Assembly: GCA_947631895.1 (NCBI GenBank)
Contig: CANRMU010000001.1
Span: 1-24,912 of the forward strand
Reading direction: 5' to 3'
Source: an uncultured Bacilli bacterium
GTDB lineage: Bacteria; Bacillota_I; Bacilli_A; RF39; UBA660
Length of the DNA: 24,912 nt
Positions 15,742 to 16,371 of the stretch are shown in pieces; position 1 is the stretch's first letter, and each line of letters starts with the position of its first letter. A program made the position numbers and the translations under genes. The notes beneath the pieces were generated by a model that was not told the origin of the DNA, searched no databases, and saw nothing but the letters and a program-made list of their open reading frames with translations.

Positions 15742-15803
15742 GATTTTAGAAATATTCAATTAGTTGAGCGTTTTGCCAATCTTCTTGTTGAAGGAAGGCT
15801 ATA

Positions 15804-15887
15804 ATGAACAAGAAAGATTTTTTAATTCTATCTTTAGTAATTATTATCTTATTATTATTGATATTGCTATTTATAGCATTAATATAA
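15804..15887 (+). CDS. 27-aa hydrophobic peptide 1 (MNKKDFLILSLVIIILLLLILLFIALI), candidate type I toxin
   Basis: RBS AAGGAAGG; paralog at 16181 is 20/27 identical with 6 synonymous and 7 hydrophobic-conservative codon changes, no indels, same stop position. Confidence 0.8.
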   Translation: MNKKDFLILSLVIIILLLLILLFIALI

Positions 15888-15888
15888 T

Positions 15889-15925
15889 AAAAAAATCACC
15901 TAACTTAAGCAATGAATTAGGTGAT
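15889..15925 (-). terminator. Intrinsic terminator of antisense RNA 1
   Basis: ATCACCTAA-loop-TTAGGTGAT hairpin followed by T7 on the minus strand. Confidence 0.75.
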
Positions 15926-15996
15926 GCACATATGTGGCAACACTCAACCTGCGACAATTGAATATTCCTTTTTTATTTTACGCAAGTTTCCTTGCC
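15889..15996 (-). ncRNA. Predicted ~108-nt antisense sRNA 1, candidate antitoxin
   Basis: Bounded by a sigmaA promoter and an intrinsic terminator; 5' GCAAG-GAAA-CUUGC hairpin; complementary to the 3' UTR of peptide mRNA 1; same layout in copy 2. Confidence 0.7.
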
Positions 15997-16002
15997 ATAT
16001 TC

Positions 16003-16031
16003 ATAATATCACAATAGAAAACATTTTTCAA
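16003..16031 (-). promoter_or_regulatory. sigmaA promoter of antisense RNA 1
   Basis: TTGAAA-17 bp-TATTAT with TGn extension. Confidence 0.75.
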
Positions 16032-16088
16032 GCCTATTGAAGCATTTATTATTTATTTTTTAATTCTCAAGGTAAAAGTCAAAATCTA

Positions 16089-16117
16089 TTGAATAATGCA
16101 ATTATGTTTGCTATAAT
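16089..16117 (+). promoter_or_regulatory. sigmaA promoter of small-peptide mRNA 2
   Basis: TTGAAT-17 bp-TATAAT with TGn extension. Confidence 0.75.
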
Positions 16118-16180
16118 TATTTTAGGAACATTCGATTAGTTGGGTGATTTGCCAATCTTCTAACGAAGGGAGGCGATATA

Positions 16181-16264
16181 ATGAACAAGAAAGATTTTCT
16201 CATTTTTTCTTTAGTAATTATAATATTTTTGCTTATAGTTTTACTATATGTAATTTTAATATAA
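16181..16264 (+). CDS. 27-aa hydrophobic peptide 2 (MNKKDFLIFSLVIIIFLLIVLLYVILI), candidate type I toxin
   Basis: RBS AAGGGAGG; paralog of the peptide at 15804. Confidence 0.8.
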   Translation: MNKKDFLIFSLVIIIFLLIVLLYVILI

Positions 16265-16298
16265 AAAAAATCACCTAACTCAGCAATGAATTAGGTGA
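16263..16298 (-). terminator. Intrinsic terminator of antisense RNA 2
   Basis: TCACCTAA-N12-TTAGGTGA followed by T8 on the minus strand. Confidence 0.75.
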
Positions 16299-16371
16299 AC
16301 CCATTAAAATGGCAACACCCAACATGCGAAAATTGAATGTTCCTTTTTTATTTTACGCAAGTTTCCTTGAC
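16263..16371 (-). ncRNA. Predicted ~109-nt antisense sRNA 2, candidate antitoxin
   Basis: Promoter, 5' CAAG-GAAA-CUUG hairpin and terminator arranged as in copy 1. Confidence 0.7.

Follow-up and report, generated by a model that had tools for sequence, protein, structure and literature searches.

A covarying long-range helix closes the predicted mRNAs of a putative type I toxin-like peptide module in uncultured gut Bacilli

How are the two ends of a short peptide mRNA of an uncultured Bacilli bacterium held together? In the stretch of DNA analysed here (24,912 nucleotides of contig CANRMU010000001.1, hereafter the window), two tandem genes are each predicted to give rise to an mRNA of ~225 nt, the first ~30 bases of which pair with the last ~35. 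Because this pairing has been kept by compensating mutations in more than 100 relatives, the closing helix is, on comparative evidence, a real RNA structure, and it exists on the plus-strand transcript. We put at roughly 0.6 the probability that it closes the whole mRNA, from the first base to the start of the U-tail, and works in the manner of helix P1 of the bsrG mRNA; from its position and context we infer that it would serve as terminator stem, as protection for the ends, as docking site for an antisense RNA and as recipient in a hand-over of the 5' arm between two partners.

The arms can be read directly from the sequence, as the initial annotation had described them: on the plus strand, 15748-15778 pairs with 15935-15969 in copy 1, and 16124-16154 pairs with 16310-16344 in copy 2, fold prediction agreeing in both copies and covariation supporting the arms of copy 1. 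Each helix consists of an outer, a middle and an inner segment. In copy 1, the outer segment of 13-14 bp joins 15748-15761 to 15956-15969 (also recorded as inverted repeat I12), the middle segment (GUUGAG(C/U)G with C(A)CUCAAC) has its 5' strand at ~15763-15770, and the inner segment (GCC(A) with (U)GGC) has its own at ~15774-15778, the 3' strands of these last two occupying 15935-15948. A 7-nt loop on the 3' side lies between the outer and middle segments, at 15949-15955 in copy 1 and 16324-16330 in copy 2, where it is flanked by the inner and middle segments (16310-16323) and the outer segment (16331-16344). Two compensatory differences between the copies, both pointed out beforehand, replace a U-A pair by C-G in the outer segment (AATATTC/GAATATT to AACATTC/GAATGTT) and an A-U pair by G-C in the middle segment (GTTGAG/CTCAAC to GTTGGG/CCCAAC); the mismatches A15751.C15968 and C15770.A15942 of copy 1 are absent from copy 2.

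The ends of the mRNA are inferred solely from promoter and U-tract geometry; a look-up of RNA sequencing runs listed none with this locus. The extended -10 box TGCTATAAT (15733-15741 for mRNA 1, with a predicted start at ~15748, and 16109-16117 for mRNA 2, which has a -35 box TTGAAT at 16089-16094) ends 6 nt ahead of the 5' arm, where ~7 nt had first been estimated, and box and spacing are the same in the 22 genus homologs. A U6 tract (15969-15974; 16344-16349), described earlier as directly following the 3' arm, begins at the last pair of the helix in both copies. The end-to-end closure that had been proposed for these transcripts is what their minimum free energy (MFE) folds predict, at -52 kcal/mol (z -4.1) for copy 1 and -67 kcal/mol (z -7.9) for copy 2, and 0 of 200 shuffled sequences folded as well as the native transcripts.

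The homolog set comprised 139 distinct full-length sequences from metagenome-assembled genomes of uncultured gut Bacilli ('Tenericutes/Mollicutes'). The 22 genus homologs had been gathered without any search pattern, and RNAalifold, suggested in the initial annotation as a check on collected homologs, recovered the closing helix unaided from their structure-blind MAFFT alignment. The wider alignment, for which covariation had likewise been suggested as a check, shows it: among 87 sequences outside model building, aligned to the model, 17 of 18 long-range pairs have double-sided changes. Pairing is retained in 95.9% of cells in these 87 sequences (93-98%) vs 84.8% after column shuffling and 30-43% with slid partners, counts that overstate the number of independent compensatory events since the homologs are related. 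The model alignment is in agreement with MAFFT-only counts from 112 sequences, in which pair 15-336 is UA 64 times, CG 37 times and UG 9 times. The binding energy is -30.95 kcal/mol for arms with their own partners and -22.79 kcal/mol for arms with swapped ones, and none of 2000 permutations reached the native value. At least 8 outer pairs close the MFE fold of 111 of 112 transcripts, leaving 0-1 unpaired nucleotides at the 5' end. Across the relatives, the arms pair far more than chance would allow.

Could the arms instead be a feature of the DNA, either as the terminal inverted repeats that bound a small mobile cassette or as a box shared by the 5' end of the mRNA and the antisense RNA and bound by one protein, so that their co-variation reflects a need for identity? 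The cassette does occur in multiple copies at many genomic sites, and the antisense RNA does contain a near-copy of the mRNA 5' arm. However, a constraint on DNA or on identity would be symmetric, whereas mismatches in the helix are strongly asymmetric (133 G.U vs 14 A.C in the model alignment, 217 vs 66 in the MAFFT alignment) and the intermediates at covarying pairs are U.G, never C.A (112 sequences, MAFFT). This asymmetry places selection on the plus-strand RNA rather than on a DNA inverted repeat. The arms also lie inside the promoter and U-tract and not outside the unit, the internal loop is asymmetric, and blastn searches in distant mode of plasmid and phage collections returned no match. 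We regard a DNA-level origin of the covariation as very improbable.

Directly atop the closing helix in the MFE fold is a local hairpin between an anti-Shine-Dalgarno (anti-SD) and the Shine-Dalgarno (SD) sequence (UCUUCUU/AAGGAAG, 15780-15798), followed by the open reading frame of a 27-amino acid hydrophobic peptide (15804-15887 in copy 1, 16181-16264 in copy 2, stop codons included). The peptide start KKD(F/L)LI is common to 97 distinct homologous peptides, and a Pfam and NCBIfam search with both peptides of the window returned nothing meaningful; the product is a putative type-I-toxin-like membrane peptide. Across 107 homologs, the SD of the closed mRNA has a predicted paired probability of 0.79, which drops to 0.74 when the 3' UTR is blocked and to 0.70 when the 3' arm is taken away. 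In partition-function folding, blocking of the 3' UTR is predicted to raise SD pairing in 29 homologs and to lower it in 43, and so brings no general gain. A bsrG-like anti-SD switch, built on a three-way link of the SD to the inner 5' arm and the 3' arm, looked plausible by eye in 22 sequences and was dropped as a general claim; the swap test for the anti-SD gave no cognate signal (-7.56 vs -7.57).

How such an mRNA is terminated bears directly on the function of the helix. The proposed 3' end of mRNA 1 is the U6 tract at 15969-15974, and a run of T5-7 stands at the end of the helix in 21 of the 22 genus homologs gathered without a pattern; the pattern-gathered homologs cannot show conservation of the U-tract because the search pattern itself demanded one. 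Read on the other strand, the tract doubles as the A-rich linker of the antisense RNA, and its conservation alone is therefore no proof of termination. A terminator scan found no local plus-strand terminator in 15600-16500, and because the helix abuts the U-tract, it is the helix that would supply the terminator stem. The outer segment has a stability of -14.1 kcal/mol and ends exactly at the U-tract, and the two basal pairs next to the tract are G-C in 96 and 86 of 112 sequences. The strands of this stem are ~190 nt apart and enclose a multibranch domain, unlike those of a local short-loop hairpin. Terminator-like sites over 20 kb of the window were too few to judge how the genome usually terminates transcription. 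Rho was above the family cut-off in 0 of 10 genus genomes. RNase J1/J2-like genes are present in the source genome. RNase III is encoded by 9 of 9 relatives in the genus; in the source genome itself, which is 68% complete, it did not turn up.

Intrinsic terminators normally use local hairpins, and it could be that the helix does nothing more than stabilise the mRNA and present a target to the antisense RNA, with termination brought about by a weak local hairpin of the 3' arm and the U-tract, which would have that normal form, or else inefficient and accompanied by read-through. The 3' arm by itself does fold better than its shuffles (mean -4.3 vs -3.4 kcal/mol), but this sense-strand hairpin has C.A mismatches where the antisense RNA has G.U pairs and is half as stable, it was missed by the terminator scan, and the outer long-range segment, with G-C at its base, is stronger and reaches precisely to the U-tract. 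A helix confined to stabilisation and display therefore seems to us quite unlikely. The weak local hairpin in the 3' arm could add to termination.

On the minus strand, an antisense RNA of ~108 nt (15889-15996) is predicted to converge on mRNA 1 from a promoter at 16003-16031 (TTGAAA, 17 nt, TATTAT, with a TG extension). Of 109 homologs, 105 have a promoter-like site at this fixed position, and the TG is present in 86 of these. The corresponding antisense RNA 2 and its promoter are predicted at 16264-16406 (TTGTAA, 17 nt, TATTAT at 16406-16378). Antisense RNA 1 has a predicted fold of -32.1 kcal/mol (z -4.0), made up of a 5' hairpin (15995-15982), an A-rich linker, a middle hairpin and a terminator hairpin. 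The last of these is the minus-strand form of a bidirectional hairpin (15896-15924), which is followed by U7 (15895-15889) on the minus strand and should thus terminate the antisense RNA; on the plus strand it has no U-run. All 9 of 9 pairs of this hairpin (helix 5) covary, and its stability is -15.2 kcal/mol in the antisense sense vs -12.5 kcal/mol in the plus sense. The equivalent hairpin of copy 2 (16271-16298) is a minus-strand terminator of 12 bp followed by U8.

The middle hairpin of the antisense RNA is the complement of the 3' arm and is kept in 110 of 112 homologs, with a mean energy of -8.75 kcal/mol vs -4.34 for the sense strand and -3.42 for shuffled sequence. Its loop matches the internal loop of the closing helix (15949-15955 in copy 1), which makes the latter a predicted kissing site, and the accessible sites mirror each other, the loop site being unpaired with a probability of 0.87 on the mRNA side and 0.80 on the antisense side. 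The initial annotation had proposed an antisense RNA complementary to the 3' arm, which the convergent orientation and the conserved promoter position of the predicted RNA bear out. It had the antisense RNA covering exactly the 3' arm, and that was too narrow: antisense RNA 1 (15996-15889) spans the whole ~85-nt 3' UTR, consisting of the bidirectional hairpin, a spacer and the 3' arm, from the U-tract to ~2-5 nt from the stop codon. It lies entirely 3' of the stop codon and has no overlap with the translation initiation region.

An alternative partner for the 5' arm, in its middle and inner parts, is the 5' half of the bidirectional hairpin (15894-15906, plus strand), as indicated by covariation and a swap test. 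This alternative helix is degenerate in copy 1, with 3 mismatches, and has 13 bp in copy 2. In the MAFFT alignment it is paired in 96.4% of cells, with double-sided changes at 5 of 9 pairs; one pair occurs as four Watson-Crick types, and the swap test gives a z of -15.7. In folds of nascent prefixes, the alternative helix takes 0.69 of the pairing before the 3' half of the hairpin is present and 0.02 after the 3' arm has been made. It wins just 27 of 111 folds in which the middle and inner parts of the 3' arm are blocked and the full hairpin is present, and for this reason we treat it as a state of the nascent transcript. The alternative helix is probably the co-transcriptional partner of the 5' arm, a role read from equilibrium folding of prefixes and not from kinetics. 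The coupled covariations define two mutually exclusive partners for a single 5' segment, which points to a programmed folding pathway.

In the light of these features, the helix can be viewed as a bsrG P1-like closure with the following course of events. While the mRNA is being transcribed, the 5' arm would first be detained, through its middle and inner parts, by the 5' half of the bidirectional hairpin, and would pass to the 3' arm once that is made. The closing helix would stack beneath the local SD hairpin and supply the stem of the mRNA's own intrinsic terminator; were this so, every released transcript would be born closed, and with both ends buried it would be out of reach of RNase J, a 5' exonuclease, and of 3' exonucleases. 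The helix would at the same time display an internal loop of 6-8 nt to be kissed by the middle hairpin of the convergent antisense RNA, which may then spread across the ~85-nt 3' UTR and displace the 5' arm, and the resulting long duplex would be a substrate for RNase III decay. A stronger form of the proposal is that the closing helix is itself the terminator, RNA polymerase setting the toxin mRNA free only when the far-upstream 5' arm zips onto the 3' arm emerging beside the U-tract. Programmed strand exchange would deliver the 5' arm from a covarying holding site, the 5' half of the hairpin that terminates the antisense RNA. A single folding event would then link termination, end protection and display of the antisense target, in a lineage that yielded no Rho. 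We offer this stronger form tentatively, as a possibility that may well prove wrong.

To our knowledge, work on long-range helices of this kind in toxin mRNAs has so far been confined to a few culturable species, with hok, aapA and bsrG as the cases. The present family contributes more than 100 natural variants from small-genome uncultured gut Bacilli, with clean coupled covariations for two mutually exclusive partners of one 5' segment and with a layout that leaves the long-range helix as sole candidate for the terminator stem. If the terminator reading is true, nature would here be using a stem with strands ~190 nt apart for intrinsic termination, and co-transcriptional RNA folding would gain a compact model. 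At ~330 bp, the short module lends itself easily to tests in B. subtilis or in vitro.

Which of the known type I systems does this module most resemble? A literature search on type I systems of Mollicutes, RF39 or Erysipelotrichaceae brought up nothing but microbiome papers. In hok mRNA, a long-distance interaction governs both translation and antisense access, 3' trimming activates the mRNA, and Sok binds the 5' leader. The fbi-tac fold-back of hok/Sok and its coupled covariations are reportedly the work of Gultyaev et al. and Franch et al., both in 1997 (cited in PMC6733600 and PMC8594479). As in hok, a 5'-3' long-distance helix closes the full-length mRNA of the putative toxin, conserved here by covariation, and a 5' element covaries with two mutually exclusive partners; unlike in hok, the SD is locked locally and the predicted antisense RNA targets the 3' UTR. 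The aapA/IsoA systems of Helicobacter pylori (Arnion 2017, PMC5416894; Masachis 2019, PMC6733600) are likewise similar in that a 5'-3' long-distance interaction locks the full-length mRNA and that covariation supports transient structures during transcription, before the final closed fold. However, the long-distance interaction of aapA holds an anti-SD (aSD3), whereas the partner of the 3' arm here is nt 1-31, which precede the SD hairpin; the metastable hairpins of aapA sequester the SD, which is not so here, and IsoA overlaps the 5' region and the ORF, as the antisense RNA described here does not.

Might the module nevertheless work by fold-back of the hok/aapA1 type, with the helix keeping the full-length mRNA untranslatable, trimming of the 3' arm activating it and the antisense RNA acting on the trimmed form? 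The end-to-end architecture matches the 5'-3' long-distance interactions of hok and AapA (PMC6733600; PMC8594479), the second covarying partner of the 5' arm recalls tac in hok, and the hairpin upstream of the 3' arm could halt a 3' exonuclease and so set the truncated form. Against this, the SD lies in a local hairpin outside the long-range helix, its pairing falling only from 0.79 to 0.70 without the 3' arm. The antisense RNA stays clear of the translation initiation region, and trimming of the 3' arm would cost the antisense RNA about half its target, which is contrary to the way hok and aapA work. We therefore consider such fold-back unlikely. Of the likeness to hok and aapA1 drawn in the initial annotation, the covarying long-range helix that closes the transcript is retained; the fold-back inhibition of translation is not, and because the SD sits in its own hairpin and barely depends on the helix, hok/aapA1 fold-back is not the best analogy.

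In the Fst/RNA II (par) system of Enterococcus faecalis, protection of the toxin mRNA is usually ascribed to a helix at its 5' end. The toxin mRNA and antitoxin RNA of par are convergent around a shared hairpin, as is predicted for the two RNAs here, but the par RNAs pair via direct repeats at their 5' ends. The antisense segment described here, as the reverse complement of the 3' arm, resembles the 5' arm of the mRNA and copies it rather than complementing it, which excludes the par mode of pairing.

Compared by architecture, bsrG of Bacillus subtilis, with its helix P1 and the 3'-overlapping antisense RNA SR4, is a closer analogue than hok or aapA1. In bsrG P1, nt 1-35 pair with nt 232-262, with the SD hairpin on top, and the helix is opened by SR4 (PMC3834814). 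The likeness is one of layout, with no homology of sequence or model and an unrelated peptide, here of 27 amino acids: Rfam yielded no match at gathering thresholds, BsrG (RF01412) scoring 12.7 bits (E 1.9) vs a gathering score of 55, and only noise at E values up to 10, including PyrR at 23 bits on the antisense RNA. In both systems the 5' ~30-35 nt lie in a long bulge-interrupted helix with the 3' region, from which the SD hairpin and the ORF branch off, and the SD is in a short local stem. In both, a convergent antisense RNA overlaps the 3' part of the mRNA including the 3' strand of the helix, and would here, by prediction, free the 5' strand; RNase III-type decay of the long duplex is plausible. 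SR4 overlaps the end of the ORF, whereas the antisense RNA here stops 2-5 nt after the stop codon, and the SD helix of bsrG extends on antisense binding, which is not predicted here (SD pairing 0.79 free, 0.74 blocked). A further difference is that bsrG has a separate terminator stem-loop, SL4, after P1, while here the U-tract comes straight after the helix and the plus strand showed no other terminator. What this module appears to add to the bsrG plan is thus a closing helix that runs straight into the U-tract without a separate terminator, and a 5' arm that covaries also with the 5' half of the bidirectional hairpin.

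The window carries two tandem toxin-like units that share 83% identity and lie about 376 bp apart. In each, the plus strand opens with an extended -10 promoter box, and 6 nt past that box begins a 5' arm of about 31 nt, followed by a local anti-SD/SD hairpin (SD, Shine-Dalgarno sequence) and a 27-codon ORF that encodes a hydrophobic peptide. Beyond the ORF lie an A-run and a 12-bp bidirectional hairpin (15896-15924 in copy 1, 16271-16298 in copy 2) that is the minus-strand terminator, after which a short spacer leads to a 3' arm of about 35 nt and a terminal U6 tract. An antisense promoter (TTGAAA and TATTAT spaced by 17 nt, with a TG extension) is located on the minus strand about 30 nt past the U-tract, and promoter and terminator scanning with folding predicts a convergent antisense RNA of about 108 nt that spans the entire 3' UTR. 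Its 5' start (15982-15995; 16357-16370) would form a 5-bp hairpin with a GAAA tetraloop (GCAAG-GAAA-CUUGC), moderately conserved among homologs and likely to be a 5'-end protection element. The host genome is an AT-rich, 68% complete MAG of 890 kb, and the neighboring genes (Lon protease, a UDG-family protein, and SPFH/NfeD proteins) are chromosomal genes of the housekeeping kind. Within 20 kb, the sequence that best matches a sigma-70 promoter (TTGACA, 17 nt, TATTAT, TG; minus strand, 15688-15716) drives a 186-aa ORF (15137-15697) without a Pfam match, and is divergent from the promoter of toxin mRNA 1, whose upstream region it overlaps.

Direct reading of the sequence bears out the initial annotation in that the 5' and 3' arms are complementary in both copies (15748-15778 with 15935-15969, and 16124-16154 with 16310-16344), and the two copies do differ by both of the compensatory changes. 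When folded without constraints, both transcripts reach a minimum-energy structure that is closed from end to end, and relative to dinucleotide shuffles the z-scores are -4.1 for copy 1 and -7.9 for copy 2. RNAalifold predicted the same long-range helix from a MAFFT alignment, made without regard to structure, of 22 genus homologs, and a covariance model built from that alignment was used to align 87 other sequences. In these, 95.9% of cells are paired, compared with 84.8% in column shuffles and 30-43% with slid partners, and double-sided changes occur at 17 of 18 long-range pairs (for example CG 30/UA 29, UA 44/CG 32, and AU 35/UA 33), cell counts that exceed the number of independent events owing to kinship among the sequences. 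Because the 87-sequence alignment was fitted to the model, the counts were redone on a MAFFT alignment of 112 sequences, which gave the same picture. Since the pattern used for collection prescribed the U-tract and some of the 3' arm, variation in those places can only be underestimated. In an alignment-free swap test, own arms averaged -30.95 kcal/mol versus -22.79 kcal/mol for permuted arms, and 2000 permutations gave no value as low. Of 112 transcripts, 111 have a minimum-energy fold in which 8 or more outer pairs close the molecule and 0-1 nt at the 5' end stay unpaired. Could the arms be a DNA-level repeat? The model alignment has 133 G.U cells against 14 A.C cells, and the MAFFT alignment 217 against 66, an asymmetry expected only under selection on the plus-strand RNA, which argues against a DNA inverted repeat, a very improbable explanation, and against a merely identical shared box. 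On this comparative evidence, the closing helix is confirmed as a real RNA structure.

By DNA search, the unit occurs in 34 of 36 same-genus genomes, and a pattern scan of a species-representative genome collection found at least 120 loci. Those listed are nearly all in MAGs labelled uncultured Bacilli, Tenericutes or Mollicutes, with rabbit, ruminant, mouse, chicken and human guts among their sources. The homolog set comprises 139 distinct units of full length, of which 112 are below 93% identity. An intact ORF is missing from five of the 112 (L013, L018, L074, L104 and L021:2585-2819) by ORF scan, with an in-frame TGA in L013 and loss of the SD region in L018 seen in alignments; all five are still full-length nhmmer matches, and L013, L018 and L104 retain family-typical arms in the A2 alignment. 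One homolog, L047:234-461 (genome G033, contig C107), is without the 3' half of the bidirectional hairpin. Further modules in the present genome (L003, L005, L008 and L006, on contigs C81, C8, C13 and C78, respectively) are more divergent and have the same RNA layout with other peptides, such as a 30-aa MKTKTF...IKK type. Among relatives, the U-tract, antisense 5' hairpin and antisense promoter stretch recurs more often than the toxin part, and one antisense scaffold seems to be common to several peptide families.

The middle and inner segments of the 5' arm have a second covarying partner, the 5' half of the bidirectional hairpin. For this alternative helix, 96.4% of cells are paired in the MAFFT alignment, compared with 84.0% in shuffled and 25-41% in slid controls, the swap test gives a z-score of -15.7, and double-sided changes occur at 5 of 9 pairs, one of which displays all four Watson-Crick types (CG 56, GC 17, AU 16, UA 15). 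In folded nascent prefixes, the share of 5'-arm pairing on the alternative site is 0.69 before the 3' half of the hairpin has emerged, falls to 0.35 with the full hairpin, and is down to 0.02 when the 3' arm is present. Even when the 3' arm of the finished mRNA is blocked, the alternative helix wins rarely (27 of 111). The bidirectional hairpin of 15896-15924 and its homologs contains a C.A mismatch on the mRNA strand that is a G.U pair on the antisense, and the C of this mismatch is the base that pairs with a 5'-arm G in the alternative helix. Copy 1 (15748-15976) has closing-helix mismatches A15751.C15968 and C15770.A15942 that are absent from copy 2 (16124-16351), and three mismatches in the alternative helix where copy 2 has a clean 13 bp; the structurally weaker copy 1 may be drifting.

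What might the closing helix do? The initial annotation likened it to the fold-back inhibition of hok and aapA1, and whereas the covarying helix stands, that likeness is not supported. The SD is located in a local hairpin directly above the closing helix, and partition-function folding of 107 homologs gives it a paired probability of 0.79 in the closed free mRNA, 0.74 with the 3' UTR blocked to mimic bound antisense, and 0.70 with the 3' arm removed; by prediction, therefore, the closing helix is not the main translational lock. Activation of the mRNA by 3' trimming, as in hok, is unlikely, since the SD would stay largely paired after loss of the 3' arm. An anti-SD switch suspected by eye was rejected by the swap test.

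A different role is suggested by the end of the transcript. A terminator scan of the locus found no separate plus-strand terminator, the closing helix, with G-C pairs at its base, runs up to the U-tract, and the 3' arm alone folds weakly (-4.3 kcal/mol). Rho was not found over the family cut-off in any of 10 genus genomes (G000-G009, 65-92% complete) and is present in 2 of 6 relatives that belong to other orders or to the same class. Taken together, these observations leave the closing helix as the only candidate terminator stem. A purely stabilizing helix, with a weak local terminator ending the transcript, is more doubtful still than 3' trimming, given the feeble fold of the 3' arm and the outcome of the scan. 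A long-range terminator is plausible kinetically: the middle helix would form about 25 nt before the U-tract, tethering the 5' arm beside the emerging outer strand. Yarnell and Roberts (1999) reportedly replaced the upstream half of a terminator stem with oligonucleotides added in trans. This possible long-range terminator, together with the clean evidence for a folding pathway, is the main interest of the family.

The antisense complement of the 3' arm folds back into a hairpin of its own (mean -8.75 kcal/mol; sense strand -4.34, shuffles -3.42), and this middle hairpin of the antisense folds better than its own shuffles in 110 of 112 homologs. The loop of that hairpin is complementary to the internal loop of 6-8 nt in the mRNA helix, and the accessible segments of the two RNAs mirror one another, with predicted unpaired probabilities on mRNA and antisense of 0.87 and 0.80 for the internal loop and middle-hairpin loop, 0.94 and 0.84 for the U-tail and A-rich linker, 0.70 and 0.64 for the spacer, and 0.66 and 0.70 for the hairpin loops. 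From this complementarity and mirrored accessibility, the closed helix seems to present a defined kissing site. RNase III is encoded in nine of nine genus relatives and was not found in this incomplete (68%) assembly, which has two RNase J paralogs.

We infer that transcription would start at about 15748. Covariation and equilibrium folding suggest that the SD would then be trapped in its local hairpin while the 5' arm parks on the region emerging past the stop codon, until hairpin completion and emergence of the 3' arm shift it onto the latter. Zipping of the outer segment beside the U-tract would free a transcript already closed, with both ends buried, presumably long-lived and poorly translated. 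The antisense RNA could nucleate on either the internal loop or the U-tail, displacing the 5' arm, and the resulting duplex of about 85 bp could be cut by RNase III.

The hok folding pathway is defined by the same kind of coupled covariation as that of the two 5'-arm partners here. The alternative helix also resembles the metastable hairpins of aapA3 (PMC6733600). In hok and aapA the long-distance interaction is the main translational lock, unlike the prediction for this family (PMC6733600; PMC8594479). The closest analogue is bsrG, in whose mRNA the bulge-interrupted helix P1 joins nt 1-35 to nt 232-262, with the SD in a 4-bp stem atop P1, and SR4, the 3'-overlapping antisense RNA, renders nt 1-33 single-stranded and promotes decay (PMC3834814). 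The layout is held in common, but the peptide differs, as does the sequence (12.7 bits to Rfam BsrG, cut-off 55). Beyond bsrG, the present family has no separate plus-strand terminator, a covarying second partner for the 5' arm, and a self-folding antisense complement of the 3' arm.
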